64,000 nt of DNA from a virus. Positions 1,342 through 56,044 of this stretch are shown here, piece after piece. The position numbers and the translations under genes were made by a program. The stretch's first letter is position 1. Each line of letters opens with the position of its first letter. The notes below the pieces were generated by a model. The model was given only the letters and a program-made list of their open reading frames with translations. It made no database searches and had not been told where the DNA came from. The stretch is from the IMG/VR virus record IMGVR_UViG_3300021185_002720, positions 8,149 to 72,148 of that record; one strand, written 5' to 3'.

Positions 1342-1867
1342 AGTATGGATAGCATTTTTTAGTCAGACAGGTGCTGAAATAGCTGATATAGCAGAATCAC
1401 TAGGTAGATGGCCAGATAGGATAATTACTAATGATAGACCTGAACATCTTAGAACTATTGATGAAAGAATAGAAAAGAAAGGTTACTTCACTATGAGTAA
1501 TAAACCCTCGTTAGATGAATATGAAGATACCTTAGTATACTTTCCAGAAGCATTGGTCACTTTACATGGATGGCTTAGAATAATGCCTCCTGAGATTTGT
1601 GAAAGATTTAATATAATTAATGGTCACCCAGGCCTTATAACCGAGTATCCAGAGCTTAAAGGTAAAGATCCTCAAATAAGAGCTTTTGAAGGAAAGTACC
1701 CAGTTGTTGGCACAGTATTACATAGAGTAGTAGCAGGTGTAGATGAAGGAAAAGTAATTTCTGAAGAGAGATTTAATAATTTTAATTTGGAGCTTAATGA
1801 TTTATTTCGTATCTTAAGAGATAGAGGGTTATATATGTGGTGTAACTTCCTAAAAACGGTTTTATGA
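1331..1867 (+). CDS. dpdN: PurN-like formyltransferase, probable preQ1 formyltransferase (DpdN-like)
   Basis: Formyltransferase motifs LHGWLRIMP, INGHPGL..YP.LKG, GTVLHRV..GVDEG; sits between the DpdA-like gene and queF. Confidence 0.65.
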   Translation: MGTKVWIAFFSQTGAEIADIAESLGRWPDRIITNDRPEHLRTIDERIEKKGYFTMSNKPSLDEYEDTLVYFPEALVTLHGWLRIMPPEICERFNIINGHPGLITEYPELKGKDPQIRAFEGKYPVVGTVLHRVVAGVDEGKVISEERFNNFNLELNDLFRILRDRGLYMWCNFLKTVL

Positions 1868-2385
1868 TAAAAAGAATAGCATTAGTAGGAGCAAGTAGTA
1901 CAGGTAAGACTACTGTTTATGAACTACTTAAAAATAAATTACCTAAGTATGAGTTTGTTAATGAATCTACTAGAACAGTAGGTAGTTACGGATTTCCTAT
2001 TAATGAAGAAGGAACCGATGCTACTCAATTAGCTATTAGTAGTTTTCATTTGGAAGCTTTACTTCAACCTTATAACTTAGTATTAGATAGATGTTATATG
2101 GATGTTTTAGTTTACTCTAGATTTATGAAAGGAGTAACTACATATACGAACGATTATATAGAAGATACTTGGAATAGAATAAAGAGCGAATATACTCATT
2201 ATGTTTACTTCCCTATTGAATTCGATTCAGTAGACGATGGAGTTAGAAGTGTAGATGAACAATGGAGAAAGGAAATAGATAGTGAGTTTAAAGCTGTTCT
2301 TGAAGGTGTACGTCAACCTTATTTGACGATAACTGGTTCCCCTATGCAAAGGGTAGAACAAATTTTAGATTTTATAAATGTTTAG
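1864..2385 (+). CDS. P-loop nucleoside/nucleotide kinase-like protein (AAA_28/NadR-like)
   Basis: Walker A GASSTGKTT, LDRC..D, DDGVR. Confidence 0.75.
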   Translation: MIKRIALVGASSTGKTTVYELLKNKLPKYEFVNESTRTVGSYGFPINEEGTDATQLAISSFHLEALLQPYNLVLDRCYMDVLVYSRFMKGVTTYTNDYIEDTWNRIKSEYTHYVYFPIEFDSVDDGVRSVDEQWRKEIDSEFKAVLEGVRQPYLTITGSPMQRVEQILDFINV

Positions 2386-2749
2386 ATACGGAGCAAAATT
2401 ATTAAGAGTAGTTGATGGTGACACAGCAGATGTTATGATCGACTTAGGATTCAGTACTTGGGTTAAAGCAAGGCTTAGATTCAAAGGTGTAGATACCTGG
2501 GAAAAGAGAACTAGAAATTTAGAAGAAAAAGCTAAAGGTATATTAGCTTCTGAATTTACAAAAAAACACTTAGAGCTAAATGATGGTAAGTTTATCATTC
2601 AGTCCTACGGTAAAGGTAAGTATGGAAGAGTACTTGCAGAGATTTTTATTGATCTCGATGGAGAAGAAACCTCTTTAAATAAACTATTAGTAGAAAACGG
2701 TCACGCTTATGTTTACGAAGGTGGCAAAAAACAATTATTTAAAGGATAA
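2378..2749 (+). CDS. thermonuclease (SNase) family protein
   Basis: RVVDGDT, RLRFKGVDT, KYGRVLA, LNKLLVENGHA. Confidence 0.85.
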   Translation: MFRYGAKLLRVVDGDTADVMIDLGFSTWVKARLRFKGVDTWEKRTRNLEEKAKGILASEFTKKHLELNDGKFIIQSYGKGKYGRVLAEIFIDLDGEETSLNKLLVENGHAYVYEGGKKQLFKG

Positions 2750-2753
2750 AAAT

Positions 2754-3665
2754 ATGGCAGAAGTTAAAAATTATCAAGAAGTAGTAGACATTGCGTCTAA
2801 ACACTTAGGAAAAGTAGGCGGTGATGGGTATAAAGATACCTACGCACCAGAGTTATTAGTTAAAGTACCTCGTTATTTGAATAGAGAAGGATACGGATTA
2901 ACTGATAAAGATTTTGTAGGAGTAGATACTTGGAACTGTTACGAAGTATCAGCTATTACTAAAAAAGGATTACCTGTAGCAGGTATGTTAAAAATTGTAT
3001 GTCCTTCAGATTCTGAATATCACGTAGAATCTAAGTCTATTAAGTTGTACCTAAATTCTTTTAATATGACTAGATTAGGAGAAACTTCTGTAGATTGTAT
3101 TTTAGAGATTGAAGAAAGAGTAAAAACTGATTTAGATAAGTTACTTGAAACTAATACTACTGTAAGCTTTTACACTGATTTAGACGACGGTAAAGAATTA
3201 TCTTTTGAAGGATATGAAGATTTAGGAGATATAGTAGATTTAGATCAAATAGATTTTACAGCTTTTCAGTCTGATGCTTCTCAATTACTTATAGAAGATA
3301 CCTCAGAAACCCCTAAAGAAGTAAAATTAAGATCTAACTTATTAAGATCTAACTGTAGAGTAACTAATCAACCAGATTGGGGTGATGTATTTATTAGAAT
3401 GAACGGTAAAAATTTACCTGCAGTAGATTCGGTAGCAAAATATATCGTATCTCATAGAACCGTTAGTCACTTTCATGAAGAGATTTGCGAAATGGTATTT
3501 AAGCATTTAATGGATGCATATCAACCTGATGATTTAATGGTATCATGCTTATATACTAGAAGAGGAGGATTAGATATAAATCCTATTAGAGCAACTCACT
3601 CAAGGTTCATTCCTGACTTCTTTACTGATACAGATTATAGAATTCAAAAAACATTAAGACAGTAA
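2754..3665 (+). CDS. queF: 7-cyano-7-deazaguanine (preQ0) reductase, bimodular QueF
   Basis: DTWNCYEVS, VESKSIKLYLNSF, RSNCRVTNQPDWG, FHEEICE, YTRRGGLDINP; start taken at ATG 2754. Confidence 0.92.
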   Translation: MAEVKNYQEVVDIASKHLGKVGGDGYKDTYAPELLVKVPRYLNREGYGLTDKDFVGVDTWNCYEVSAITKKGLPVAGMLKIVCPSDSEYHVESKSIKLYLNSFNMTRLGETSVDCILEIEERVKTDLDKLLETNTTVSFYTDLDDGKELSFEGYEDLGDIVDLDQIDFTAFQSDASQLLIEDTSETPKEVKLRSNLLRSNCRVTNQPDWGDVFIRMNGKNLPAVDSVAKYIVSHRTVSHFHEEICEMVFKHLMDAYQPDDLMVSCLYTRRGGLDINPIRATHSRFIPDFFTDTDYRIQKTLRQ

Positions 3666-8817: not shown

Positions 8818-10473
8818 ATGAGTAAAGATTTAGAATTTAATCACAAAGCTAGAGTAGGACTTTCAGAAGGTATCGAAAAATTAGCAAAGACTGTTGTATG
8901 TACTTTAGGTCCAGCAGGTAGGAATGTAATTATTGAACAAACAACAGGTAATCCAATTTCTACTAAAGACGGAGTTACAGTTGCAAAGTCTATTGAATTA
9001 AAAGATCCATTAGAGAATATTGGAGCACAATTAGTTAAACAAGCATCTATTAAGACTGCAGAAGAAGCTGGTGATGGTACTACTACCTCTACACTACTAG
9101 CTAGAGAGATGTTTCAAAAAGGTTTAGGAACTATTGGAGATCATACTGCAGTACAAGTTAAGAAAGGAATAGAACTCGCTACAGAAGACGTAGTTGAGTA
9201 TTTAGAATCAGTAAGTAAAGATATAACGGACGAAGGACAGCTTAAACAGGTCGCTACTATCTCTGCCAATAACGATAATGAAGTTGGCGAATTGATTTCT
9301 ACTGCTATGGAAAAAGTAGGACAGGATGGAGTTGTGTCAATCGAAGAATCAAAGACCGGAGAAACGTATTTAGAAACAGTTGAAGGAATGCAATTCAACA
9401 GAGGTTATAAGTCTCCATACTTCGTTACAGATAACAGCACCATGACTGCTGTTCTTCGTGATCCGTTTGTATTAATTACTGATAAAAGGTTGAACCAGGT
9501 GAAGGAGTTACTTCCTGTATTAGAAGCTGTTTCTCAACAAAATAAGTCTCTGTTAGTAATTGCAGACGATATCGATGGAGAAGCATTATCTACTATGGTA
9601 GTTAATAAGATGAGAGGTATTCTTCCTGTAGCTGCAGTTAAGGCTCCTGATTTTGGAGACAGAAAGAAAGCAACGTTAGAAGATATAGCAATCATAACAG
9701 GAGGTCAAGTAATCTCATCAGATAAAGGAATGAGATTGGATAAGTTTGATCCTGCTTGGTTAGGTAAAGCTGTTAAAGCTACTGTTTCAAAAGATACCTG
9801 TACTATTATTGATGCTAAAGGAGATGAAGAAAAGATTCAAGCTAGAGTAGATGAGATCAGAACTCAGATAGACGAATCTAATTCACCTTTTGAGAAAGAA
9901 AATCTTCAAGACCGATTAGGTAAATTGATCGGCGGAGTTGCAGTGGTACACGTTGGTGGTCATACTGAAATAGAAATGAAAGAGAAGAAAGATAGAGTAG
10001 ATGATGCTCTACATGCCACCAAGGCAGCTCTAGAAGAAGGTGTTTTACCTGGAGGAGGAGTAGCATTACTTAATGCTGCTAAAAAGATTAGAGATAAGAA
10101 AGATAAAGGTAGCTACAAAGATCTTACTGCTAGTGAGCAAGTAGGAATACAGATACTTTTAGAATCAATAGAAAGACCATTCTATCAGATTCTTTTTAAC
10201 GCTGGAATTGCTGAACCAGAAATCGATGAAATAAGAAAAGCGATTGAAAAGAAAACTAAAGATAAATGGTATGGTTATAACTCAAGAGTTGAAGACTTTG
10301 CTGATATGTTTAAAGAAGGTATTATCGATCCAACTAAAGTTACTAGGTTAGCATTAGAGAATGCCGTATCAGTAGCTGGAACGATGTTAATCACTGAAGC
10401 AGTAGTATCGTTAGATAAAACTGAAGAAACAAAAGCACCATTAGACGCAGCTCAACAAATGTTACTAGGATAA
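8818..10473 (+). CDS. groEL: chaperonin GroEL
   Basis: [45 protein letters not shown]. Confidence 0.97.
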
Positions 10474-12217: not shown

Positions 12218-12503
12218 AAATTATATAGGCTATTATTTTATTGCAGCAGCAATTTTGCTTATAGTTGCAGGAGAATATTTTACAGGAGTCTTAATTGGGT
12301 TTGTAACCGTGTTAAAGGTACCGCCATTTGATTGGGTTGGAAGAGCAATGGACTGGTCAGCAGGAATTGGGCATAGATATGGATTGAAGCTTAAAGCCTG
12401 GAAAGAAAAGCAATCAAAACCAGTTAGGATACTGGTAACAATAATTGCTGCAATCCTGGTCTTTTTAATATGGTGGAATATGCCTGAATGTGAGTTATGT
12501 TAA
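12201..12503 (+). CDS. membrane protein
   Basis: Two hydrophobic segments. Confidence 0.6.
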   Translation: MIEHFRNYIGYYFIAAAILLIVAGEYFTGVLIGFVTVLKVPPFDWVGRAMDWSAGIGHRYGLKLKAWKEKQSKPVRILVTIIAAILVFLIWWNMPECELC

Positions 12504-12979
12504 AAGATTATATTAGAGAAGTGCCCGACTTTCCAAAAAAAGGGATTAACTATAAAGACATACAACCTTTACTTGCAGACGATAATGCATTCTTCGATGC
12601 TCTATACGACTTAGGAGAATTAGTTGATATTGAAAAAGTAGATTACTTTGTAGGGATCGAGTCGCGTGGGTTTATATTCGCGTCCGCGCTTGCCGCTATG
12701 AATATGAAAGGCTTTAAAATGATCCGTAAAGCAGGAAAATTACCTCCTGCTAATTTAGTATCTATAGAATATGGATTAGAGTACGGTAGAGATACCATAG
12801 AAATAGAAAAAGGTTTTGGAAATGTTGTAATTGTTGATGATGTATTCGCGACCGGAGGAACAATGACAGCAGCCGAAATGATCTGCGAACTTGCAGGGTA
12901 CCAAGTAGTAGATAGTATTTGCTTACTTGATATTGGAATCAACAAAAAACATACTACAAAATGCCTAATATCTTATTAG
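12497..12979 (+). CDS. apt: adenine phosphoribosyltransferase
   Basis: PDFPKKGI, GIESRGF, RKAGKLP, EYGLEYG, IVDDVFATGGT. Confidence 0.92.
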   Translation: MLKDYIREVPDFPKKGINYKDIQPLLADDNAFFDALYDLGELVDIEKVDYFVGIESRGFIFASALAAMNMKGFKMIRKAGKLPPANLVSIEYGLEYGRDTIEIEKGFGNVVIVDDVFATGGTMTAAEMICELAGYQVVDSICLLDIGINKKHTTKCLISY

Positions 12980-13494
12980 TATCAGCTACAAAGCTTGAAC
13001 ATCACGATACAGAAATAAATGGAGTGCCTATACATATAATTGGTATAGGAAAAGTTGAAGCAGCTCTCAATACCTATAAACTTATACAGAAGTATAAACC
13101 TGACCATGTAGTGAATTTTGGTTCATGTGGCAGTCTTTGTTCTGCTAGAATAGGAGAAGTTATTGAAGTTGGAGAAGTATACGATGACTTTTATGGATGT
13201 GTAGTACCAGAACATTCAAGTATAAAAGTAAGTAATACTAAAGTTAAATTATTTACTACAGATATATTTTATGACTCTTCAGCAACCTATAGTAATTCGT
13301 ATGTTGAAAATCTCCGTAAATGTGATTTAGTAGATATGGAGGGATATTCTATAGCAAAAGTTTGTTTATCTGAAAATATTTCCGTATCTTTATTTAAATG
13401 GATTAGCGACTCTGGAGACAGTACAGATTGGAGAGCTAATGCTTCAATAGGATATAATAATTTTAAAAAGGTTTTCAATGAGCGATTCAGTTAA
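12961..13494 (+). CDS. MTA/SAH nucleosidase-like protein (PNP_UDP_1 family)
   Basis: GIGKVEAA, VNFGSCG, VDMEGYSIA, KWISD. Confidence 0.8.
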   Translation: MPNILLVSATKLEHHDTEINGVPIHIIGIGKVEAALNTYKLIQKYKPDHVVNFGSCGSLCSARIGEVIEVGEVYDDFYGCVVPEHSSIKVSNTKVKLFTTDIFYDSSATYSNSYVENLRKCDLVDMEGYSIAKVCLSENISVSLFKWISDSGDSTDWRANASIGYNNFKKVFNERFS

Positions 13495-13714
13495 GAAGTA
13501 TCACGAATTAGTAGAAGAAGGAGTTTATGATAATAAACTATCTCCAGAAGAACAAAGGGATAATAAAATAATGGAACTACTTGCTAAGGCAGCTAAAGCA
13601 AATAAATTAGCACAAGTCGAAATACGAGCAGAAGAAGTTAAAAAAGAATTTGGAACAACAAGCTTGCTACTTGGTTTAGAGATAGCAGTTGATGAATTAG
13701 TTAAAGATGAGTGA
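13478..13714 (+). CDS. hypothetical protein
   Basis: Coupled ORF. Confidence 0.55.
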   Translation: MSDSVKKYHELVEEGVYDNKLSPEEQRDNKIMELLAKAAKANKLAQVEIRAEEVKKEFGTTSLLLGLEIAVDELVKDE

Positions 13715-14225
13715 TAGATATGAAATGCAGATTCATAAGAGTGAATTTAAGCCTCTGCGAATCGATAATTCATTTTCTATAAAAGTAATAGATAAATTTG
13801 AAGACGGAGAAGAACATTTCAAACAGTTTATTGAGTCAATAGATATTAACTTAAGTGATTGGGATGAAAGGCCAACTTTAAATGATGTTAAAGATAGATT
13901 AAACGGAGTATCAAAATGTACTTTATTTTTTCATGAAGATATAAAAGAGGCTATCGGATGGGGGTGGTTCTCTAGTGTGTTTACATATGACTGGGTAAAT
14001 GAAGTGCATCCTCTACCTACTGATAATTCAACATACTGGGGAGGAACATATATACGTAAAGAATTAGACATACCAAAAACTACAGGCTTACAAATGTATA
14101 ACCACGGGTTTGAATTATTTCTTAGCTTTAGTGATTATATGTACGGCTATATGGATAGCTGGAATAAAGCACCTATCAAGATTTGTCATAAGATAGGCGG
14201 CCGTGAATTTAAATTTATACAATGA
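13707..14225 (+). CDS. GNAT-like hypothetical protein
   Basis: IGWGW, YIRKE, MDSWNKAPIKI..KIG resembles the GNAT C-terminal motif. Confidence 0.45.
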   Translation: MSDRYEMQIHKSEFKPLRIDNSFSIKVIDKFEDGEEHFKQFIESIDINLSDWDERPTLNDVKDRLNGVSKCTLFFHEDIKEAIGWGWFSSVFTYDWVNEVHPLPTDNSTYWGGTYIRKELDIPKTTGLQMYNHGFELFLSFSDYMYGYMDSWNKAPIKICHKIGGREFKFIQ

Positions 14226-14731
14226 TATTAGAAATAGAACAAGACATAGTAACATTACTAGAAGAGTTTCTCGATATAGTTCCTAAGGCTGGTGAAAAGC
14301 AAATGGATAGATTAGAGAAGATAGCTCCCGGTTTAGTTCATTTCAATAGATTTACAGAAGACTCTAATGAAACAGATATTGACTTCTATTCAGTAGATAA
14401 TGAAAACTTTAATACAGCATTAGCCGCAGCTTTAAAAATAGACCTATACAACCCAATTACAATCCATAGAGTAAATTATAACGTAGGAGGTAAAGCATTA
14501 GAACATAAAGATGAAAATTCTCTTCATACTTACGTAATAATGTTGGACGATAATTTTGAAGGAGGAGATTTTTACCTTAGAGGTGAACTTACAGACTTTA
14601 GACGAAGAGGCCAAGTTGCATACTATATGGGTATGGATGCTGCTCATAGTGTATCGGAAGTAACAAAAGGCTCAAGAAAAGTACTTGTAGTATGGTACAG
14701 AGGAACAAAACCAGAATTTAAAACATTATGA
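14222..14731 (+). CDS. 2OG-Fe(II) oxygenase
   Basis: HKD, FEGGDF, H.V.EVTKGSRKVLVVW. Confidence 0.85.
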   Translation: MILEIEQDIVTLLEEFLDIVPKAGEKQMDRLEKIAPGLVHFNRFTEDSNETDIDFYSVDNENFNTALAAALKIDLYNPITIHRVNYNVGGKALEHKDENSLHTYVIMLDDNFEGGDFYLRGELTDFRRRGQVAYYMGMDAAHSVSEVTKGSRKVLVVWYRGTKPEFKTL

Positions 14732-15438
14732 GTATAAAGCTCATCAGCTGCATTGGATTAGACTACGATAGACCGTTGCTCTCCCACTTTCTCAAGCATT
14801 ATAGAGCATTGGATATTGATAGTATTCATTTGATTATACACAAAAAATCTAAATTTAATATTCAAGAGATTTATGATGAATTTGGAGATGATTTAATTTT
14901 AGAGAAATGGGTTGGACTATTTGACGGTGTTACTAAAACCAGCAAACTAAATAAAATAATAGAGAACACAGAAGAAGATTATATCATGATGGCTGATGTA
15001 GATGAACACCAGATATGGGATACACCAGTTAATGAGTATTTAAATGTGAGTAACTTTAGATGGGGTAAATTAATTGATAGAGAGTCTAAAGAAAAACAAT
15101 TAATCGAAGTTACTGATGCCCCGTTGGATGAACAGTTTCCTTTAGTGACTAATAGAACTATATGGACTGATTTATTTAAACCATGTTTATTTCCATCTAC
15201 TGATAGATTAGCTAGTCCTCATCATTTAATTATTAATCATAACAATAACAAAGATATTATAGACATACATCATTACAGATGGGTTGCTGGACGATTAGAG
15301 AAAACAAAAGAAAGAAAAGATCATTATACTGAGTTAAATAAAACAGGATACCACTTAGAAAAATCTCCATGGAAAACTATTCCTAACTGGGAAGGAGATT
15401 ACATATTAAGAATGTATAAACCGGGTAAGTTAATATGA
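14728..15438 (+). CDS. GT-A fold glycosyltransferase (GT2-like)
   Basis: LLSHFLKHY..L, MADVDE DxD motif, HHYRW. Confidence 0.65.
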   Translation: MSIKLISCIGLDYDRPLLSHFLKHYRALDIDSIHLIIHKKSKFNIQEIYDEFGDDLILEKWVGLFDGVTKTSKLNKIIENTEEDYIMMADVDEHQIWDTPVNEYLNVSNFRWGKLIDRESKEKQLIEVTDAPLDEQFPLVTNRTIWTDLFKPCLFPSTDRLASPHHLIINHNNNKDIIDIHHYRWVAGRLEKTKERKDHYTELNKTGYHLEKSPWKTIPNWEGDYILRMYKPGKLI

Positions 15439-16166
15439 AGCAAGTAACTACAGTCTTATCGGTTGTTAAGAGATTAGAGTATTTTAAATCTCAAATTGAT
15501 GCGATAGAATCTCAAACTATAGATTCAGATATATTTGTAATATGGAGAAATGCCTCTGAGTATTCATTTCCTTATCCTAGTATTATATATAAAAATGAAA
15601 CGCAACATTTCAATTCCCTATACGGTAGGTTCTATAACTCACTTCATATAAAAACACCATATACGTTTATAGTAGATGATGACATTTTACCTGGAGGAAA
15701 ATATATAGAAAGATGTATTAATTTTAGTAAAGAACATAACGATAAAGTTGTAATTGCTACATACGGGGTTAATTTTAAATCTAATACTTCTAAATATACT
15801 CCAAAAGAAAGAATAGGACCTGAGGTATTTTTAAAAGAACCTAAAAAAGTAGATATGGGAGGTCAAGGATGGTTTATGAAAACTGAACTTTTACAGCATT
15901 TCCTTTACGATAGTATATTTAACGAAGGCTCAGGGGAAGATTTACATTATTCTTATTGTTTATTCAAGAATAAAGTACCTATTTATATAATAGATAAGGA
16001 TGTTAACGACTCTAAAACTTGGCAAGACCTTACTTTAGGTAAAAGAGGGGAAGACGATCAAGCTCAATGGAAGCAAACTCAACATTTAGACATAAGAAAT
16101 AAAGTTTTAAAACACTATACTACCAAAGGATGGCTTTCCGGAAGAGGAAATTCTACCTTAATTTAG
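15435..16166 (+). CDS. GT-A fold glycosyltransferase
   Basis: QIDAIESQT, YGRF, IVDDDILPG, GEDLHYSY. Confidence 0.7.
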   Translation: MKQVTTVLSVVKRLEYFKSQIDAIESQTIDSDIFVIWRNASEYSFPYPSIIYKNETQHFNSLYGRFYNSLHIKTPYTFIVDDDILPGGKYIERCINFSKEHNDKVVIATYGVNFKSNTSKYTPKERIGPEVFLKEPKKVDMGGQGWFMKTELLQHFLYDSIFNEGSGEDLHYSYCLFKNKVPIYIIDKDVNDSKTWQDLTLGKRGEDDQAQWKQTQHLDIRNKVLKHYTTKGWLSGRGNSTLI

Positions 16167-16220: not shown

Positions 16221-17636
16221 ATGAAAGGAACACTATTATCATTCGATTACGTTAGATCACCGGAAGGAGATTTAAAGTTCATTGAGATGAACACTGATAC
16301 GACGATCGCAGCCGATCAAATAGAACCATCTATTAATTGGGACGGTTTGTTCACAGTTATGCAAGACATTAGCGCTACAAAGCTTGATGTTATTTACAAA
16401 CCAGAAATACATCAACCAATTGTAAACCACTTATCTGCATCAGCAATGTCTCCGTCAGGGAGCTTTATTACTGATTTTACACATCATAAAGAAGATTACA
16501 GAAGTATCTTCCCAACTGCTGTAGAAGATGCAGCTGATAAATTTATTTTAAGATTAGCTTACGATGATAATGCTATTTTAGATAACACATATTGTGCTAC
16601 TGGACACGCACCACTTCAATTGCTTAATGAATATAATTCTTCAAGCTTAGCAGTTCCTTTCTTTTATAGTGGTAGTGAAGGAGAAGTAGATTTATTAACA
16701 ACATCTTCTAACAGCCTTAACATTCCAGATCTTGCAGTTAAGACAAAAAGAGATACTTGGGATGCATTAAAGTTTGTAAAGGTAAGAGACTGGAGTACAG
16801 TAAAAGGAGAATTAAAAGAAGATTACTTCTTAACTAATTACTTAATTCACCCTTCTTCTGAAGATACAGAAAATGCAGTTAGTTCTTATAGATCTTATGG
16901 TATTGCTTACGGCGGAGGATTGAACTATATGCCTCTTGGAGGTTTCCAACAGTACTCTCAATTTAGTATTCCAGAGGTTCTTGATCTTGCTGATGATGGA
17001 ATGAATAAAGTACTAGATAACAAACACTACTATGAGTATTCAACTAGTACTATAAAAAGTAAGCAAAATTATAACGGAGTATTCACTACAGAGAGACTTT
17101 TAGCAGCAGATAATGGAGCTTTACAAGCTAGTGAAATAAATACTGGACAGGCAATGAAAGGTTTTCACATACCTGGCTCACCTGACACAGAAGATAAAGC
17201 TACTTACATAGCATGGAGACATGTAGGGAAATCTTTACCTGCTAATTCTGGAGTTACTTCTTCGGTAGCAGTAGCAGCTTCAAAAGTATATCCAAATATT
17301 CATAATGATCTGTTTTCAATTCATCCTTCTGGATCTACGGAACCAGTTTATATAGGAGTTGATGCTGCAATTATTACTTATAATTCAGGTTCAGATACAT
17401 GGGCATATAGAGCACCACATCAAATCAATCAAGATTTAGATTACATCTTTAACACAGATAGTGAATTAGTTCCAATCTCATCATCACAGCATATTATTCT
17501 TCATCAACCTACAGGAAGTTTCTTTACTGTCGATATTGAAACAAATGATAACTTAGTTGTTGATACAGCAGATTCGAATAATGAAATTGTAATATCTTTT
17601 CACAATCCACCAGCAAAAATTGAACCACCAAAATAA
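16221..17636 (+). CDS. ATP-grasp-like N-terminal region plus C-terminal Hint (intein-like) domain
   Basis: N-terminal SFDY...LKFIEMNT; Hint-like start GVFTTERLLAADNG...EINTGQAM and end FTVDIETNDNLVV...ISFHN, followed by 9 residues. Confidence 0.5.
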   Translation: MKGTLLSFDYVRSPEGDLKFIEMNTDTTIAADQIEPSINWDGLFTVMQDISATKLDVIYKPEIHQPIVNHLSASAMSPSGSFITDFTHHKEDYRSIFPTAVEDAADKFILRLAYDDNAILDNTYCATGHAPLQLLNEYNSSSLAVPFFYSGSEGEVDLLTTSSNSLNIPDLAVKTKRDTWDALKFVKVRDWSTVKGELKEDYFLTNYLIHPSSEDTENAVSSYRSYGIAYGGGLNYMPLGGFQQYSQFSIPEVLDLADDGMNKVLDNKHYYEYSTSTIKSKQNYNGVFTTERLLAADNGALQASEINTGQAMKGFHIPGSPDTEDKATYIAWRHVGKSLPANSGVTSSVAVAASKVYPNIHNDLFSIHPSGSTEPVYIGVDAAIITYNSGSDTWAYRAPHQINQDLDYIFNTDSELVPISSSQHIILHQPTGSFFTVDIETNDNLVVDTADSNNEIVISFHNPPAKIEPPK

Positions 17637-17645
17637 TAGTATAAT

Positions 17646-17813
17646 ATGAATAAGCCAATCGATCCTTCATTAATTTATAGATCTAAACAAACAGCTACAT
17701 CACCAACGGGTGAAGTTGAATTAGGAACTTCAAAAGTTACTTATGAAGATATACAAGAAATGAATGTTATTTCTGAAAAGATCCTTTCTTTGATTGTACA
17801 AAAACATTCATAA
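17646..17813 (+). CDS. small hypothetical protein, 55 aa, missing from the ORF track
   Basis: MNKPIDPSLIYRSKQ...LSLIVQKHS, directly after the Hint-like gene. Confidence 0.55.
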   Translation: MNKPIDPSLIYRSKQTATSPTGEVELGTSKVTYEDIQEMNVISEKILSLIVQKHS

Positions 17814-17863: not shown

Positions 17864-18382
17864 ATGGTTACATCGTTAATATTACCCTATAAACCTTCGC
17901 ATGAGCTGAAGTGGTTAGAGAAATTCTTTAAGAAAGACTACTACAAGAAACCGTATGATAGATTCATGTGGTGGAGAAGCTATACCCCTAAACAGAAACC
18001 TCTTACTAATCGTCATGATTTGAGAGAACGTATCCTTAATGGAGATTTCGATGTGGCTCCCTATGCTTTCGAAGCACAGATAGTCGAACATAGAATGAAT
18101 AAGATCTTTGAGGAGTGTAAGGGATATGAAGACGTTTACAGAGAGAAGACTCAAGTAGATAAAGCAAGACGTAAGAGGCTATTAGAAGACTATGAAAAAG
18201 AAGAAGCCAGACGATTAGATGAATTGAAAAAAGCATTTGTTCTTAAGTTTAAGATGACTAAAGAGCAATACGAAAAAGAGGTAGTTAATACTAGGGCTCG
18301 TAACCTTATTAGCTTTTACGATAAAATGGAAGCAAAATACGGTACGTACTGGAAGCCTCTTAGTTATCCAAAGAAAACTTAG
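17864..18382 (+). CDS. hypothetical protein
   Basis: ORF behind the class I promoter at 17830-17860. Confidence 0.65.
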   Translation: MVTSLILPYKPSHELKWLEKFFKKDYYKKPYDRFMWWRSYTPKQKPLTNRHDLRERILNGDFDVAPYAFEAQIVEHRMNKIFEECKGYEDVYREKTQVDKARRKRLLEDYEKEEARRLDELKKAFVLKFKMTKEQYEKEVVNTRARNLISFYDKMEAKYGTYWKPLSYPKKT

Positions 18383-19014: not shown

Positions 19015-19189
19015 ATGCCCTTTTCTCACTAATTTAGTATAGCTTTTACTCAAACCTGTATATTTATTATTAGAATGCCGGTTAAGTCGATAAAGGTAAC
19101 CAAAAAGTCGATAAACCAATCTAATCGTTCTACATAAATTTTCTACGTTAATCGTTTTATAATTGTTGCAGTCGCAAAGCAGTAATTAT

Positions 19190-19660
19190 ATGAGACTATT
19201 ATTATTTTTATTAAGTCTCCTATTCAGTTTCTCAATCTTTGGACAAGAGATAAAAATAGGTGATGTAAGTAACAATATCGAATTAGGTAACCTAGCTGGT
19301 AACAGAGACTTAGCATTTGGTGTTAAGAATGTACTAGAAGAAGTCATCCAAGACTACGGGTATGACCTAAACCCAAACTCAAATAATATACTGGAAGTAG
19401 AATTGCTTTACTTTGATGTTCAACAGAACAATTTTCAAATAGCAGCCTACGGAAAAAATATCGATATCTATCAGATCATCGCCAGAGGCGTATATTCTAT
19501 AGACGGTAAAAAGAAGAAAAAAGCAGTAGCTAAAGGAACAGCAAAATCTATTTCTACAGCTACATTAATAATTGATAAGGGAGGTAAGTTTTCACAGGCT
19601 AACGTCTCGACAGCAATAAAAAAACTCTGTGAAGATTTAATACGTAAACTAAAACTATGA
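19190..19660 (+). CDS. exported protein (signal peptide)
   Basis: MRLLLFLLSLLFSFSIFG/Q signal peptide. Confidence 0.65.
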   Translation: MRLLLFLLSLLFSFSIFGQEIKIGDVSNNIELGNLAGNRDLAFGVKNVLEEVIQDYGYDLNPNSNNILEVELLYFDVQQNNFQIAAYGKNIDIYQIIARGVYSIDGKKKKKAVAKGTAKSISTATLIIDKGGKFSQANVSTAIKKLCEDLIRKLKL

Positions 19661-21345
19661 TGAAAAAATTATTATTTTTATTATTATTATTGCCAACGAT
19701 AGCTCTAGGACAGACCTTTGTAGTTGGTATGAACTCCGGTGCTGATGCAGACGTGGGTGAAGAAATTGAACTTAAATTTGAATTGTTTCCTGAATCAGGA
19801 CAATCAACTATGCCGGCTACATTTTTACGATTTGATGTTCAATGGAACAATAAATTACTTGAATATGTTAGCCATACATTAGATCCTTTAAATAAATTAA
19901 CTAGCGAGCAATCAGCTAGAACTCATTGGGATGGGTATAAATTTAACCAGGATATGGACTATAGTTCATCTAATTTATATAGACATTTCTTATGGTGGAA
20001 CGGAGGAGCAGCTCAAGCTGGTTCAAGTTCATACCCTACAAATAGTGACTTCTCAGTTGATAGGTTTACTATTCAAGCATCAGAAGACATTAATTTATAT
20101 GATGCTGTATTGCATATGAAATTTAAAGTATTAGATAGACAAGGTACTAACTATCAAAACTATTCTGGAGCTTTTCAAATTAACTGGGCTCAATTGGAAG
20201 ATAATAGAGATGGTACGGTACACCAACTTGGTTCTACTAATCACCAAATTGGATTAGATCCAGGAGGAGTAGGAGCAGGAGATGTTACTTTAAACTTAAC
20301 TATACCTACAGATTATAAAGCAGATTATAAATATAATATATATCTTGCAAGTCAAGTAGAGGAAACAGATTATGATGGTGATGGAACTAACGATGGATTA
20401 GAGCCTAAAGAAGGAGAGCAGCCTTTTGCTGTAGGTACCTTTAATGGCAATGGTACTGCTTCTCTTGCTACATTAACATTAGACGAGGAAGTATGGGTAC
20501 ACACTTATGTAGACGGTACTCCAGATTGGTTAGATGATGTAGTAACAGTAACAGATGTTTATAAAGCATTTCAATTCGCATTAGGTTCTACTGGTGGACC
20601 TGGAGGAGGAGCTGCTAACTGGGAGCATGAAGTACAAGCTATATTAGGAGAAGTAACTAACGATAATGTAGTAAACTTTGATGATTCTTATGAACTACTT
20701 GCTCATGTAAATGGAGTAGAGACAAGTGCTAATGTATCTTCTAAAGCAAATGGAGCTTTTAACTTCTCATCATTGATGGATAAGTACGGAGATATATCTG
20801 AATTTATGAGTGCTCGTACTTTTACTGCTACAGATGATAATAAGACATTTACTATAGGACATGGACTAAGAGGAGATTTAGATTTCTCTCACTCAACAGT
20901 TCCTACTTTTACCTCATCTGATGCTCAATCAACTTCAGCTAGAAATGCACAAGCATTTTCTATTATATCTAACAGATCAGTAGAAACAGAAACTATCGAT
21001 TTAACATCATCACTTGTCGACGGTCAAGTAATCGTAGATGTAAATTTAGACACAGCTGGACTAGTTGGATCTCAGTTTAAAATTGTATTTGATAATAACA
21101 TACTAACTTTAGATGATATCATATACGATACAGGATCTAATATGACTAACTTTGGTACGGTAAAAGGTAACGTAGTATCATTTGGTTCATTAGATTACGC
21201 TGGTGATGTATCAGTAAATACAGGAAGACCTTATAGGTTAGTCTTTACACCAAACGAAAATATAACAAACACAGCAGGACTGGTAAGCTTTAAAATCATA
21301 GAAGGAGTTAAAGCAGACGGAACTAAAGTTAAATTCCAATACTAA
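19657..21345 (+). CDS. exported cohesin/dockerin-like domain protein
   Basis: Signal peptide; cohesin-like FDVQWNNKLLEYV and QFKIVFDNNILTL; Ca-loop/dockerin-like DYDGDG, VTVTD, NDNVVNFDD. Confidence 0.55.
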   Translation: MMKKLLFLLLLLPTIALGQTFVVGMNSGADADVGEEIELKFELFPESGQSTMPATFLRFDVQWNNKLLEYVSHTLDPLNKLTSEQSARTHWDGYKFNQDMDYSSSNLYRHFLWWNGGAAQAGSSSYPTNSDFSVDRFTIQASEDINLYDAVLHMKFKVLDRQGTNYQNYSGAFQINWAQLEDNRDGTVHQLGSTNHQIGLDPGGVGAGDVTLNLTIPTDYKADYKYNIYLASQVEETDYDGDGTNDGLEPKEGEQPFAVGTFNGNGTASLATLTLDEEVWVHTYVDGTPDWLDDVVTVTDVYKAFQFALGSTGGPGGGAANWEHEVQAILGEVTNDNVVNFDDSYELLAHVNGVETSANVSSKANGAFNFSSLMDKYGDISEFMSARTFTATDDNKTFTIGHGLRGDLDFSHSTVPTFTSSDAQSTSARNAQAFSIISNRSVETETIDLTSSLVDGQVIVDVNLDTAGLVGSQFKIVFDNNILTLDDIIYDTGSNMTNFGTVKGNVVSFGSLDYAGDVSVNTGRPYRLVFTPNENITNTAGLVSFKIIEGVKADGTKVKFQY

Positions 21346-29265: not shown

Positions 29266-29270
29266 GGTTG

Positions 29271-30707
29271 ATGGAAGGTTATATTAAAAAAGAAGATAGG
29301 AAAAAGATACTCCTACTATGTGATGATATTCGAATGCATTCTGGAATAGCTACAATGGCTAGAGAGTTTGTAGTCAATAATGGTCATCGATACAATTGGT
29401 TTAACGTAGGTGCTGCAGTCAATCATGCAGATAAAGGTAAGGTATTAGATCTATCAGCCGATATTAATAAACAATTAAATATAGAAGATGCAGATGTAAG
29501 GATACTCCCTTACAATGGATACGGAGATGCTCAGTTAGTTAGAGACATTATGAAGAGAGAAAAGCCAGATGCTATTTTTATCTTTACTGATCCAAGATAT
29601 TGGACTTGGCTATTCGAAATTGAAAGAGAAGTAAGAAGTCAAGTTCCAATCATCTGGTTAAATATTTGGGATGAATTTCCTTCACCTAAATACAATGAAC
29701 ATTTTTACGATTCAGTAGATGCTTTGTTAAGTATCTCTAAACAAACTAAACTGATAAACGAATTAGTATTAGGGAATAAAGCTGATGATAAGGTATTAAA
29801 GTATATTCCTCATGGAATAGATAACGATATATTTAGACCTATAGAAGATCCTGAGAATAATAAAGAGTTCCAAGGATTTAAAAAAGGAGTATTTAACAAT
29901 AAAGATTATGAATTCGTCGCTTTCTTTAACTCTAGAAACATTCAACGTAAAAGACCAGCAGATGTTATGCTAGCTTTTAAGCTCTTCTGTGATAGTATAG
30001 GTAAAGAGAAAGCTAAGAAATGTGCTTTAGTAATGCATACTGCTCCTGTAGACCAACACGGAACTGATCTAAATGCAGTTAAGAATGCAATATGTGATCC
30101 TGAATATGTAAACGTATTTTTCTCTACTACTAAAATTAATCCTATTCAAATGAACGGGATGTATAATTTAGCAGATGTAACTATGTTGATATCGTCTAAC
30201 GAAGGATGGGGATTATCATTAACTGAGTCTATGTTAGCAGGTACAATGACAATCTCAAACGTAACAGGAGGAATGCAAGACCAAAGTAGATTTGTAGATG
30301 AAAACGGAGAATGGTTTACTCCATCAGCTGATATACCTTCTAACCATAGAGGTACATATAAAGAACATGGTGAATGGAACCTACCGGTATTCCCATCTAA
30401 TATTTCTTTAGCAGGTTCAGTACCTACTCCTTATATTTTTGACGATAGATGTTCACCAGAAGAAGTAGCTCAAGCGTTAGAGGTAATCTACGACATGAGT
30501 CCTGAGGAAAGAAATGAAAGAGGTTTAAAAGGAAGAGAATGGGCTATGTCTGAAGAAGCAGGACTTACAGCTAAAATAATGAGTGATAGAATAGCAGAAG
30601 CTATTGATGAAACTTTAGAGAGCTTTGTTCCAAGACCTAGATACGATCTTTTAAAAGTAGAAGATAAACCAAGTAAATTAATTGAACACAAATTAACAGG
30701 TTATTAA
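29271..30707 (+). CDS. GT4 glycosyltransferase
   Basis: SGIATMARE, IPHGID, RNIQRKR, NEGWGLSLTESM. Confidence 0.85.
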   Translation: MEGYIKKEDRKKILLLCDDIRMHSGIATMAREFVVNNGHRYNWFNVGAAVNHADKGKVLDLSADINKQLNIEDADVRILPYNGYGDAQLVRDIMKREKPDAIFIFTDPRYWTWLFEIEREVRSQVPIIWLNIWDEFPSPKYNEHFYDSVDALLSISKQTKLINELVLGNKADDKVLKYIPHGIDNDIFRPIEDPENNKEFQGFKKGVFNNKDYEFVAFFNSRNIQRKRPADVMLAFKLFCDSIGKEKAKKCALVMHTAPVDQHGTDLNAVKNAICDPEYVNVFFSTTKINPIQMNGMYNLADVTMLISSNEGWGLSLTESMLAGTMTISNVTGGMQDQSRFVDENGEWFTPSADIPSNHRGTYKEHGEWNLPVFPSNISLAGSVPTPYIFDDRCSPEEVAQALEVIYDMSPEERNERGLKGREWAMSEEAGLTAKIMSDRIAEAIDETLESFVPRPRYDLLKVEDKPSKLIEHKLTGY

Positions 30708-30708
30708 T

Positions 30709-31989
30709 ATGAGTAAATCAACATTAGTTATTAGCTGCCCTATTGATACTTATTCAGGATATGGAGCAAGATCAAGAGACCTAGTAAAAGCTATCATAGC
30801 AACAGGTAAATATAACGTAAACATAATTGGACAACGATGGGGTAATACTAGATTCGGTTACTTAGATGATCATAAAGAAACTGATCTCAAAAGCCTAATC
30901 ATACCTGGACTACAGACTCAACCTGATATATGGATACAAGTTACTGTACCTAACGAATTTCAAAAGGTAGGTAAATATAATATCGGTGTTACAGCTGGAA
31001 TAGAGACTGACCAATGTCACGGTAGTTGGATAGAGGGTTGTAATAGAATGGACCTTATACTAACCTCATCAGAGCACTCTAAAAAGGTATTCGTTAATAC
31101 TATAGTAGATGCTATGGATCAAAAGACCGGTCAGAAAATTAAAGAAATTAAACTAGAAAAACCAGTCGAAGTATTATTTGAAGGGGTAGATACAACTAAG
31201 TACTTTCAAACTAAAACATCAGCTAAGACAGAGTTTACTTTAGACATCAACACTATACCAGAATCATTTTGCTACCTTAGTGTAGGACATTGGATGCAAG
31301 GAGATTTTGGACACGATAGAAAGAATATAGGGTATACTGTTAAGACATTTTTAGAGACTTTTAAAACTAAGAAAAATCCTCCTGCTTTAATACTTAAATG
31401 TAGTACAGCTTCTACATCTATTTTAGATAGAGAAAGGATTTTAGATAAGATAGATGCTATTAGAAAGACCATTAAAGGTGGTAGGTTAGCTAATATCTAT
31501 TTGCTTCATGGAGAGATAACAGATGGAGAAATGAATGATCTATATAACCATCCTAAAGTTAAAGTAATGGTTAGTCATACTAAAGGAGAAGGATATGGAA
31601 GACCCCTTGCTGAGTTTGCTGTTACAGGAAAGCCTATCATTGCATCAGGATGGTCCGGTCATACAGACTTTTTAGATAAAGATCTTTCTATACTACTCGG
31701 TGGTACAATAGATAGAGTTCATCCATCGTCTGTTCTCAAAGATATGATCATTACAGAAGCTAGTTGGTTTACACCTAGTGATCCAGATACTTCTAAAGCA
31801 TATAAGAAAACATTTAAACATTACAAGGACTGTATACCTGGAGCTAGAAAACAGAGAAGAGTTATATTAGACAACTTTACATACGAAGATATGTGCAAGA
31901 GAGTTGATAACATATTAGAGAGTAATATTCCAGACTTTCCTAAGCAAATACAATTAACATTACCTAAATTAGATTTACCAAAATTATAA
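30709..31989 (+). CDS. GT4 glycosyltransferase
   Basis: SGYGARSR, DRKN, KGEGYGRPLAE, WSGHTDF. Confidence 0.85.
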   Translation: MSKSTLVISCPIDTYSGYGARSRDLVKAIIATGKYNVNIIGQRWGNTRFGYLDDHKETDLKSLIIPGLQTQPDIWIQVTVPNEFQKVGKYNIGVTAGIETDQCHGSWIEGCNRMDLILTSSEHSKKVFVNTIVDAMDQKTGQKIKEIKLEKPVEVLFEGVDTTKYFQTKTSAKTEFTLDINTIPESFCYLSVGHWMQGDFGHDRKNIGYTVKTFLETFKTKKNPPALILKCSTASTSILDRERILDKIDAIRKTIKGGRLANIYLLHGEITDGEMNDLYNHPKVKVMVSHTKGEGYGRPLAEFAVTGKPIIASGWSGHTDFLDKDLSILLGGTIDRVHPSSVLKDMIITEASWFTPSDPDTSKAYKKTFKHYKDCIPGARKQRRVILDNFTYEDMCKRVDNILESNIPDFPKQIQLTLPKLDLPKL

Positions 31990-31992
31990 GTT

Positions 31993-32463
31993 ATGATAGA
32001 TAAAGATTCATTAGTAGAGGGACCATTTGGAAGTGATGCATGTTATGAAACATCATTTGAACAAGAAGGAAAAACAATAACAACGTGGCTATGTTTCGGT
32101 AGTGGCTTTACTACTTCAACAATAATGACTGAAGGTTCATCAGCAGTAAGTAATTTACTAGAAACAGCTCCTTCGTTGTATAAAGATTTACTCCATACAG
32201 ATAAAGATAAAAAAGTATGGTTACCTGCTACGATTACTTTACCAGAAAAAGGTATGGTATTTTTAGACGGTACTAATACTGATAACTGGAACTGGACTGC
32301 TGTAAAAGCAGCAAGGTTAACAAAAGAAGATAAAGAGTCTGGTAAGTTTCCTGAAGGTAATGAATGGAAAATGGAGATGAAAAATAAGAAAGTATTTGGT
32401 CAAACCGATTTCATGGATGCTATGGATCATATTGGCTTCTTTGCTTTAGAACCTCAAGTATGA
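31993..32463 (+). CDS. hypothetical protein
   Basis: ORF within the glycosyltransferase operon. Confidence 0.65.
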   Translation: MIDKDSLVEGPFGSDACYETSFEQEGKTITTWLCFGSGFTTSTIMTEGSSAVSNLLETAPSLYKDLLHTDKDKKVWLPATITLPEKGMVFLDGTNTDNWNWTAVKAARLTKEDKESGKFPEGNEWKMEMKNKKVFGQTDFMDAMDHIGFFALEPQV

Positions 32464-33083
32464 AAATAAGCTATGCCATAACGGTTTGTAATGAATTCGA
32501 AGAGATTCAAAAACTTGTATCTACACTAATGTTAAATATTAGAGAAGAAGATGAAGTTATAATTCTATTCGATAAACGTAACGGCACAGCAGAGGTATGG
32601 GACTACCTAGTAGGTCTACAGAGCCAAAACCTAGTACTTACATTTCCTGAAACGTTTAAAGGGCACTTTGCTGATTGGAAAAATAAACTTACCTCTTTAT
32701 GTGGCGGGGATTATATCTTTCAGATAGATGCAGATGAAGTACCTAACGAAGCTTTGATAGCTAATCTTCCAGGCATATTAGAATCTAATCCTGATAATGA
32801 AGTTTACTTAGTTCCTAGAGTTAACACTGTTGATGGATTAACAGATGAACATATTAATAAATGGGGTTGGAATATAAATGATTCAGGTTGGGTTAACTGG
32901 CCTGATTATCAATGGAGAATCTATAAAAACTCAGATGATATAAGCTGGGTTAATAAGGTGCATGAAAGGCTTGAAGGGTTCAAGACGTATGCTCCATTGC
33001 CTCAAATAGAATCTATGGCACTTTACCACCCTAAAGACATAGAGAGGCAAGAAAAGCAAAACCAATATTACGAAACATTATGA
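32460..33083 (+). CDS. GT2 glycosyltransferase
   Basis: ISYAITVCNE, FQIDADE, PDYQWRIY, VHE. Confidence 0.85.
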   Translation: MKISYAITVCNEFEEIQKLVSTLMLNIREEDEVIILFDKRNGTAEVWDYLVGLQSQNLVLTFPETFKGHFADWKNKLTSLCGGDYIFQIDADEVPNEALIANLPGILESNPDNEVYLVPRVNTVDGLTDEHINKWGWNINDSGWVNWPDYQWRIYKNSDDISWVNKVHERLEGFKTYAPLPQIESMALYHPKDIERQEKQNQYYETL

Positions 33084-33262
33084 AAAAGAAACTAATATCA
33101 ATAGCTTTAGTTAGTACATTATTAATCGGCTGTGGCTCTTCAAAGGCATCAGCTAATACTACTACACAGACAGAAGTTATTAGTCAAGAAAATGATCCTC
33201 TGATGAAATTATTAATATCAGGATTAATTATATATACAGTTCAATTACTATTTGCAAGATAA
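33080..33262 (+). CDS. small lipoprotein-like protein
   Basis: Lipobox LIGC. Confidence 0.5.
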   Translation: MKKKLISIALVSTLLIGCGSSKASANTTTQTEVISQENDPLMKLLISGLIIYTVQLLFAR

Positions 33263-33263
33263 C

Positions 33264-33422
33264 ATGATTAAGATAGATGTCAAAGTAGGAGATACTATCA
33301 TGGTTGGTAGATTTAAAAATAAAAGAGTTAAGGTTAAGACTATAGAGTATGATGAATTTGGAATGCCGATGATAAATGGAAAGCCTGGCTGTAATTTTAG
33401 ATTGGTACCTAATCCAAGATAA
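33264..33422 (+). CDS. small hypothetical protein, 52 aa, missing from the ORF track
   Basis: MIKIDVKVGDTIMVGRFKNKRVKVKTI... Confidence 0.6.
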   Translation: MIKIDVKVGDTIMVGRFKNKRVKVKTIEYDEFGMPMINGKPGCNFRLVPNPR

Positions 33423-33436
33423 ACCTATTTATAAAT

Positions 33437-34024: not shown

Positions 34025-34027
34025 TTA

Positions 34028-34498: not shown

Positions 34499-34523
34499 CA
34501 AGTTATTTTTCTTATATTTAATT

Positions 34524-39338: not shown

Positions 39339-39339
39339 A

Positions 39340-55961: not shown

Positions 55962-56035
55962 GGATCAGTAGCTCAGCTGGATAGAGCATTAGCCTTCTAA
56001 GCTAACGGTCGTAGGTTCGAATCCTACCTGATTCA
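55962..56035 (+). tRNA. tRNA-Arg (anticodon UCU), CCA not encoded
   Basis: Acceptor ggatcag/ctgattc, D-arm gctc..gagc, anticodon arm ttagc-cTTCTaa-gctaa, T-loop ggttcgaatcc. Confidence 0.95.
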
Positions 56036-56044
56036 CAAAGAAAA

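Follow-up and report, generated by a model that had tools for sequence, protein, structure and literature searches.

A virus-restricted protein family joins a predicted ATP-grasp domain to a Hint-derived domain and is encoded beside a conserved small peptide

The window analysed here is a stretch of 64,000 nucleotides from a virus (IMG/VR record IMGVR_UViG_3300021185_002720, positions 8,149 to 72,148), and the subject of this work is one of its genes, which encodes a protein of 471 residues, together with the 55-residue peptide encoded directly behind it. The focal protein combines a predicted ATP-grasp ligase domain with a Hint-derived domain and a nine-residue tail. Both domains are of known kinds; what is new is the fusion of ligase and Hint, a Hint domain that has decayed selectively, relatives whose self-cleaving tails are interchangeable, and the partner peptide, which is found in 70 of 80 sources. 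The combination points to a phage peptide-modification system not previously described. A sequence-only reading of the window had drawn attention to the gene, and the 471-residue open reading frame (ORF) and all the motifs it listed are present: the protein begins with MKGTLLSFDYVRSPEGDLKFIEMNTDT (SFDY...KFIEMNTDT) and ends with ...FTVDIETNDNLVVDTADSNNEIVISFHNPPAKIEPPK (ISFHN-PPAKIEPPK), with proline at the +1 position.

The AlphaFold2 (AF2) model of the focal protein, built from a 32-sequence alignment, has a predicted local distance difference test score (pLDDT) of 85.4 and a predicted template modelling score (pTM) of 0.75. In VIA-align, which has a stated background of Z = 7-8, the N-terminal domain of the model matched YgiC-ADP (7uka) with Z 9.9 and a root-mean-square deviation (rmsd) of 3.8 over 204 aligned residues, model residues 1-273 falling on residues 94-378 of the chain. 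Further matches came from the same branch: a glutathione synthetase (GS)-like structure (5oeu, Z 9.8), GspS (2io7, Z 9.4), Trypanosoma brucei GS (2wyo, Z 9.2), trypanothione synthetase (2vpm, Z 8.5) and Cp1B (9cjn, Z 8.4). Classical ATP-grasp enzymes (ArgX, LysX, RimK, DcsG and GAR synthetase) reached Z values of at most 6.5 and aligned in a permuted register, with model residues ~53-277 on their own N-termini. Foldseek searches with the model returned human GS (E 1.2e-5) and YgiC/YjfC (E 1e-4). The sequence-only reading had proposed an ATP-grasp-like N-terminus with a D...E-x-N hairpin at its very start, and the collinearity of the predicted structure with YgiC-ADP bears this out.

Sequence comparisons gave weaker leads to the same place. 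In hhalign, focal residues 9-34 aligned with DdlB 257-282 (P 8e-4) and residues 8-49 with YgiC 101-141 (P 1.4e-3), the two consensus sequences of the latter pair reading 'aDFVkD..gn.klLEiNTDT' and 'lDla.dg.g..KllEnNADTpT'; the YgiC profile held only relatives of at least 77% identity, and profile-profile comparison gained little. The family profile also matched the E-x-N region of biotin-carboxylase-type enzymes (E 0.35-0.54), and language-model neighbours, taken as leads only, fell in GshA, GSH synthase and GSP_synth clusters (scores 0.82-0.87). The RimK Pfam model had no match in the contig, and control genomes likewise gave no loci. Among 170 non-redundant members, D9, E22 and N24 are kept in 97-98%, and R111, K174, K187 and R224 in 89-98%. 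The first three align to D102, E115 and N117 of YgiC and correspond to the residues that bind Mg in ATP-grasp enzymes. From the model, residues 1 to ~280 are assigned as an ATP-grasp domain of the glutathione-synthetase/GSP_synth (YgiC/YjfC/GspS) branch that begins at the predicted Mg-binding hairpin, and the assignment is backed by coherent matches within one branch and by independent, weak sequence leads.

The position of the hairpin had been read as a sign of circular permutation. The domain is indeed permuted relative to classical ATP-grasps, but this is not a new event, as YgiC, GspS and the glutathione synthetases already have this order. Because the model is collinear with these enzymes in VIA-align, a hairpin-first order is ordinary for the branch and a novel circular permutation is ruled out. 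The permuted order of the glutathione-synthetase branch relative to classical ATP-grasps was already known.

The C-terminal part of the protein was compared with 205 canonical Hint units cut from the tails of the family's own members. Residues 280-462 aligned with these units in hhalign with Prob 98.3 and E 1.2e-14 over 135 columns (template 3-148 of 148). Structural alignment of the Hint-derived domain (residues 283-461/462) gave Z 16.9 and rmsd 1.8 Å with BIL2 (6y75), and Z 16.5 and rmsd 1.8 Å with the Clostridium thermocellum bacterial intein-like (BIL) domain 2lwy, with 138 of 138 residues aligned; Hedgehog (1at0) followed at Z 14.7 and dozens of inteins at Z 11-16. Gly286 superposes on residue 1 of inteins. 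In the full-length set, which consists of the query and 231 aligned relatives of at least 430 residues (n = 232), this position is glycine in 199 members and cysteine in none. The T-x-x-H motif of block B is absent, the aligned residues 376-384 having no conserved threonine or histidine. With glycine in place of Cys1 and block B lost, an N-terminal thioester is impossible.

The other end of the domain is kept. E440 (226/232), D443 (228/232), His461 (224/232) and Asn462 (228/232) rank with the most strongly conserved positions of the protein, and the His-Asn dipeptide closes the body of 222 of the 232 full-length members. Conservation of this order, here and at D9, E22 and N24, places the features noted by the sequence-only reading well outside chance expectation. 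The domain has thus kept the residues used by inteins for C-terminal asparagine cyclisation. Residues 286-462 are thus a BIL-type Hint domain that has no N-terminal nucleophile and retains the C-terminal catalytic residues. It is not a splicing intein, since it has no N-terminal nucleophile, is followed by Pro463 at +1 and is present in every full-length member, with no intein-free allele. The sequence-only reading had described a Hint domain of just this kind, with a terminal His-Asn, and had staked itself on two folds and one dipeptide: both the ATP-grasp and the Hint fold appear in the model, and the dipeptide is conserved. Members with Ser, Thr or His at position 286 were considered as carriers of an active Hint domain and rejected, as they have no block B and belong mostly to a divergent clade with Cys-rich tails.

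What follows the His-Asn junction varies widely. Among the full-length members, 163 carry one to three canonical Hint units, 42 (the query included) have short tails of at most 20 residues, 16 have Cys-rich tails only, 9 have a Peptidase_S74 self-cleaving chaperone module and 2 have other tails; a Pfam scan found no Peptidase_S74 domain in the query. The canonical units start with C-F-x-A-G-T, contain T..HP and end with NHNFxAN..LVHN plus 1-3 residues. They match solved BIL domains (6y75/6tmm and 2lwy) with E of about 1e-24, BIL2 being closest (E 3.8e-24). A screen found a self-cleaving module behind the His-Asn in 156 members, 96 of them with a linker of 0, 1 or 2 residues; the linker is 'AP' in 49 members. 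On a tree of 191 non-redundant bodies the tail type changes at least 16 times, compared with a mean of 56.6 for shuffled labels, which indicates that modules are inherited within clades yet repeatedly exchanged. The short tail of the query is disordered in the model (residues 462-471, pLDDT below 50), and its ...EPPK ending is common to the short-form clade. With Hint units, an S74 protease and Cys-rich cargo exchanged behind a single conserved His-Asn junction, the family is a natural series well suited to work on the evolution of self-processing modules.

Some tails have features of their own. In 61 members the segment between the His-Asn and the next Cys1 is x-Pro (AP, SP, NP or GP), and two cleavage sites flank a Cys-rich stretch in 11 members. 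Such segments might be released carrying both a free amine and an activated carboxyl, and this would be a way to make cyclic dipeptides or cyclic Cys-rich peptides ribosomally. Several members (P0246, P0235, P0239, P0245, P0258 and others) have Cys-rich stretches of ~25-100 residues between the His-Asn and a Hint or S74 module, which could be excised as free Cys-rich peptides, and in one divergent subclade there are Cys-rich tails only. At one locus (L070:6001-8170) the gene lies in two ORFs, the first of 596 aa and the second of 125 aa, which begins just before the start of a Hint unit; either the Hint unit is separately encoded there or the gene is broken.

The loss of Cys1 and block B raises the possibility that the Hint-derived domain and the BIL units are functionless relics or selfish passengers, an ancestral Hint domain having decayed in place while further units were duplicated or inserted behind it. 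The frequent changes of tail type, the variation in unit number from 0 to 3 and the Hint unit split off as a separate ORF in L070 would all fit such a history. The pattern of conservation does not: E440, D443, His461 and Asn462 are each present in 224-228 of the 232 members and rank with the least variable positions of the protein, which would hardly be expected of a pure relic. The domain also contains a conserved, family-specific insertion of ~35 residues (~317-350) with W332, G-x-P-D and LPSGS..TSS motifs, which argues for selection on it, and no full-length member is without it. We therefore regard the relic explanation as unlikely.

The second component of the system is the small ORF behind the focal gene. 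The neighbourhood comparison covered 80 sources (79 loci and the window; some gene-family counts are over 81 sources) in which ORFs were called mechanically. By BLAST the 55-aa ORF had appeared rare, with homologues in 4 of 80 loci, a result overturned by a positional search for ORFs ending in [KRQ][HQ] followed by no more than two residues. By this search, an ORF of 45-63 aa lies directly downstream of the focal gene in 70 of the 80 sources, starting between -17 and +99 nt after its stop (median 7.5); in the window the focal stop codon TAA occupies 17634-17636 and the 55-aa ORF begins 9 nt later. The ORF accompanies all focal architectures (short tail, 8/8; one Hint unit, 30/38; two, 16/16; three, 9/10; other, 7/8). 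What the sequence-only reading had flagged as an unannotated partner is therefore genuine and conserved.

Tyr11, Lys53 and His54 are invariant among the 46 distinct peptides, and the peptide of the window ends Lys53-His54-Ser. A profile search found 261 unnamed proteins of 45-64 aa; of the 120 members listed, 117 end in KH plus 0-2 residues and 109 in KH plus exactly one, counts to be read with the caveat that the profile was built from a pattern-selected set. A Tyr-Lys/Arg near the start is present in 118 of the same 120. Differences between close pairs fall mostly at third codon positions, so the ORF evolves as coding sequence. The peptide contains conserved lysines, and its gene is single-copy in the contig. 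In its model the N-terminal half is flexible, and a single confidently predicted helix (residues 33-54) extends to the C-terminus. No Pfam or PHROG match to the peptide was found.

The focal family is virus-restricted and unannotated. Searches gave 229 homologue clusters (E ≤ 0.001, clustered at 90% identity), and an exhaustive search gave 226 representatives, 88 of them with E ≤ 1e-30. Of the 249 IMG/VR stretches picked up by the search patterns, 116 encode a relative, and their contigs are as long as 326 kb; close relatives have about 470 aa and the majority of members 600-900 aa. A tblastn search of 50,697 deposited phage records with the focal protein gave no match, and the genomes of 185,579 cellular species gave one, on a 2.8-kb contig (L086) binned with a Cyanobium metagenome-assembled genome. 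This contig is probably phage DNA, and its binning is a possible clue to the host. In BFVD the matches were to the Hint part only, and none of the many phage Hint proteins there had the two-domain architecture of ligase and Hint. The literature searched, supplementary files not covered, held no description of the family. A family that is abundant in aquatic viral metagenomes and effectively absent from cellular genomes and deposited phage records represents a large unannotated piece of phage biology.

The relatives of the N-terminal domain suggest a function. As described in bioRxiv 10.1101/2024.03.12.584671, glutathionylspermidine synthase and glutathione synthetase use ATP to activate the C-terminal carboxylate of a peptide, which is then joined to an amine, and YgiC/YjfC are cited as peptidylpolyamine synthetases in PMC12568646. 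Since the relatives activate peptide C-termini and a coupled peptide with a near-invariant C-terminus is at hand, the simplest substrate would be that C-terminus. Our preferred reading, to which we give an even chance, is that the focal protein is an ATP-dependent ligase acting on the C-terminus of a peptide, probably that of the partner peptide, and that enzymes encoded nearby tailor the product. By analogy with its closest relatives, the N-terminal domain would phosphorylate the C-terminal carboxylate with ATP and join the activated carboxylate to an amine; the conserved C-terminus of the partner peptide would be the likeliest carboxylate substrate. The 2-oxoglutarate (2OG) oxygenases, plus methyl- or acyl-transferases where present, may then tailor the ligated product, so that ligase, peptide and tailoring enzymes would form a scaffold-peptide or peptide-tag pathway. 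E440, D443, His461 and Asn462 of the Hint-derived domain may serve cleavage after Asn462 by asparagine cyclisation or may form part of a docking surface. As most relatives carry self-removing modules (BIL units or S74) behind the His-Asn, the mature protein would in all forms end at or just after this dipeptide. Should the ligase modify the peptide, phages would have a new pathway for peptide tagging or scaffold peptides, and protein engineering would gain a source of new ligases and self-cleaving modules.

Several observations weigh against this reading. The Z of ~10 for the N-terminal domain is just moderately over the VIA-align background, sequence likeness to YgiC is limited to ~41 columns (P 1.4e-3, Prob 17.6%), and a forced global hhalign comparison with YgiC was mis-registered (Prob 0.02) and discarded. 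Only 3 of 32 members gave a match to Pfam GSP_synth, and a weak one (best E 0.11), and the focal protein itself matched none of the Pfam families and no PHROG model. The first ~93 residues of YgiC have no counterpart, as the model begins at YgiC 94, and the match of homologues to the N-terminus of the query almost always begins at their own residue 1. YgiC R100, which is identical in YgiC, YjfC and Gss and stands two residues before the first Asp, corresponds to Ser7, and serine is found here in 80% of members; R111 or R224 might substitute for it. As to the Hint-derived domain, asparagine cyclisation with proline at +1 is unproven, and the forms ending in HNK keep the His-Asn though a single lysine follows, for which cleavage gives no obvious explanation. 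As to the peptide, 10 of the 80 sources have no detectable peptide ORF (2 of these 10 carry a similar ORF ending ...SQS), and its Lys-His-x ending is unlike the acidic or Gly C-termini of known carrier and tag peptides.

The enzyme could instead be a small-molecule ligase of the glutathione, polyamine or E-64 type, joining a metabolite carboxylate to an amine, with the peptide as a regulator, a chaperone or an unrelated small protein. Its characterised structural relatives (GS, GspS, trypanothione synthetase, YgiC/YjfC and Cp1B) do use small molecules or short peptides, according to the structural alignment and PMC12568646; Cp1B and an Fe/2OG oxygenase act together in a small-molecule pathway, and conventional phage-encoded gss homologues exist (PMC9992855). 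However, such an enzyme leaves two features unexplained, namely the near-universal, tightly coupled ORF of ~50 aa with its invariant C-terminus and the Hint-derived fusion in all 232 full-length members, and we judge this explanation to be improbable.

A more elaborate version of peptide ligation, which we consider doubtful and would put forward only with reserve, is a phage conjugation system resembling ubiquitin or Pup and assembled from components that are not known to operate together. In it the GSP_synth-like domain would use ATP to activate the invariant Lys-His-x end of the ~50-aa peptide, a tag or scaffold, and attach it to an amine or to a lysine of a protein; the disabled Hint domain would keep the substrate in place, and the BIL2-like units of the long relatives would conjugate or release the C-terminus of the enzyme without ATP. 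It is still less probable, and in our view quite unlikely, that the focal protein is itself conjugated, its own C-terminus being activated and joined to a lysine of a target (the peptide, or a virion or host protein) through a BIL thioester in the long forms, as in Tetrahymena BUBL, and through the ATP-grasp domain in the short ones. BIL2 forms isopeptide bonds between lysine and the C-terminus of the upstream domain without ATP, as reported in PMC8616854. As BIL2 is the closest match of the appended units (E 3.8e-24), a role of the long forms in conjugation is kept open, and the strictly conserved body end, with Cys1 after 0-2 residues in 96 of 156 members, and the conserved lysines of the peptide would suit it. 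However, the long forms retain an ATP-grasp domain with an invariant triad, so the two routes of activation are not alternatives; S74 modules and Cys-rich tails are unsuited to a thioester route, and there is no evidence of any target. That the protein is a structural virion component (a fibre or spike) with C-terminal modules as assembly chaperones is suggested by the 9 of 232 relatives that end in the Peptidase_S74 intramolecular chaperone typical of phage fibres and tailspikes, but an enzyme fold with a conserved metal-binding triad, the lack of a structural PHROG match and neighbours that are metabolic or tailoring rather than structural make this very improbable.

If the ligation of a peptide is to be followed by tailoring, as in the preferred reading, the neighbouring enzymes are of interest (Table 1). 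The commonest enzyme neighbour is a 2OG-Fe(II) oxygenase family, present in 65 of 81 sources and often in multiple copies, and a second oxygenase family is present in 23 sources. A SET-domain family occurs in 26 of 81 sources and occupies the second slot downstream, immediately behind the partner peptide, more often than any other gene (25 loci); in the window this slot holds an unrelated 172-aa ORF (17864-18382). The GNAT-like family of the ORF at 13707 occurs in 20 of 81 sources, and its profile matched Protein Data Bank (PDB) entries weakly, with acetyltransferase 3c26 as best match (E 0.002) and GNATs making up about 17 of 26 weak matches. A radical-SAM-like family (weak matches) was found in 28 sources, PhoH in 21 and a carbamoyltransferase in 15.

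The upstream gene set at 13707-16166 (GNAT-like, 2OG and two glycosyltransferase genes) was found as the sequence-only reading described it; of these genes the 2OG family recurs, and the GNAT-like family does so less often. The two glycosyltransferases each have a homologue in only 2 of 80 loci, and a functional link between them and the focal gene is not supported. Nor did a C-terminal tail common to the 2OG protein and the two glycosyltransferases find support, as the ends ...KPEFKTL, ...YKPGKLI and ...GNSTLI are not convincingly alike by eye, no statistical test having been applied.

Table 1. Coordinates of the focal gene, its parts and neighbouring genes (window positions unless a locus is named).
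Feature	Position	Strand	Basis
Focal gene, 471 aa: ATP-grasp-like ligase domain, Hint-derived domain and 9-residue tail	16221..17636	+	ORF list, homologues, AF2 model
Predicted ATP-grasp domain, residues 1-280, glutathione-synthetase/GSP_synth branch	16221..17060	+	VIA-align, Foldseek
Predicted Mg/ATP-binding hairpin, residues 9-26, D9...K19..E22-x-N24-T-D26	16245..16298	+	hhalign, conservation
Hint-derived domain, residues 286-462	17076..17606	+	hhalign, VIA-align, residue counts
His461-Asn462, intein block-G dipeptide	17601..17606	+	H 224/232, N 228/232
Nine-residue tail PPAKIEPPK	17607..17633	+	Disordered in model
Partner peptide gene, 55 aa	17646..17813	+	Downstream ORF in 70/80 sources
GNAT-like gene	13707..14225	+	No Pfam match; weak GNAT matches in PDB
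2OG-Fe(II) oxygenase gene	14222..14731	+	2OG-FeII_Oxy_3 PF13640, E 2.3e-5, just below curated cut-off
Glycosyltransferase ORF	14728-15438		Weak GT2, E 0.0026
Glycosyltransferase ORF	15435-16166		Glyco_transf_64, 23.7 bits, above cut-off
SET-domain example, 145 aa	L046:5736-6170		PF00856, 24.2 bits, above cut-off

The window is part of a 72-kb viral contig with an estimated completeness of about 44%. Its G+C content is 31-38% and nearly all of its ORFs lie on the + strand. Among the genes of the window are those for a family A DNA polymerase, a chaperonin of the Cpn60 type, QueF and an NAD synthase, together with a large block of NeuB, cytidylyltransferase and glycosyltransferase genes, and these features indicate that the window comes from a large uncultured phage. 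The chaperonin is a Cpn60/GroEL-type protein of 551 aa (8818-10473; PF00118, E 5e-72). A formyltransferase-like and an AAA_28 ORF are clustered with a QueF-like nitrile reductase (QueF_N and QueF) at 1331-3665, and the three might form part of a 7-deazaguanine pathway. The glycan block (29268-44530) contains GT1, several GT2s, a TylF-type methyltransferase, NeuB (34832-35683), a polysaccharide pyruvyl transferase and a CTP_transf_3 cytidylyltransferase, and it suggests phage-encoded synthesis of a nonulosonic-acid glycan. Elsewhere, a phosphoribosyltransferase ORF (PF00156) overlaps a PNP_UDP_1 nucleoside phosphorylase-like ORF (12497-13494), two successive ORFs of 165 and 562 aa with signal-peptide-like hydrophobic N-termini have no Pfam match (19163-21345), and the sole tRNA gene of the window is tRNA-Arg(TCT) at 55962-56036.

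The pairing of a carboxylate-amine ligase with a peptide of ~50 aa that has a conserved C-terminus recalls LysX/ArgX with LysW, RimK with S6, Pup with PafA, and the graspetides. ArgX and LysX, each complexed with LysW, are among the structural matches (Z 6.2-6.5) but belong to a different ATP-grasp branch from the focal N-terminal domain, and the peptides of these carrier and tag systems have acidic or Gly-Gly-type ends, whereas the focal peptide ends in Lys-His-x. A scaffold-peptide logic is also described for PEARLs in bioRxiv 10.1101/2024.03.12.584671. The BIL domains (C. thermocellum 2lwy; Tetrahymena BUBL BIL2 6y75/6tmm) are the best structural matches to residues 283-462 and have the terminal His-Asn in common with them. 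Unlike the BILs, the focal domain has Gly for Cys1, no T-x-x-H, Asp for the block-F His and the ~35-residue insertion, and it cannot form the thioester on which BILs rely. With inteins and Hedgehog it shares the Hint fold, but it has neither an N-terminal nor a +1 nucleophile (Pro) and is not an insertion.

For the N-terminal domain, the eukaryotic glutathione synthetases (human 2hgs/8fbz, yeast 1m0w and soybean 3kak; Foldseek E 1e-5 to 3e-4, VIA Z 7.8-9.8, model 1-277) have the same permuted order relative to classical ATP-grasps, but they are much larger (~450-480 aa), with extra lid and substrate domains and a tripeptide-forming specificity. Phage gss homologues of the conventional type are known and, as described in PMC9992855, are not Hint-fused. 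Escherichia coli YgiC/YjfC and the GspS synthetase (GSP_synth, PF03738) have fold and chain order in common with the focal domain (Z 9.9; GspS 9.4), and the YgiC hairpin signature D-x9-K-x-x-E-x-N-(A/T)-D-T is also found in the focal protein; the expected chemistry would be alike, with ATP activation of the carboxylate at a peptide's C-terminus and subsequent attack by an amine. Unlike YgiC and GspS, the focal protein is missing ~93 N-terminal residues, has no Pfam-level match and carries Ser for Arg100, and it is distinguished from both by its Hint fusion and by the gene for a 50-aa peptide that accompanies it.

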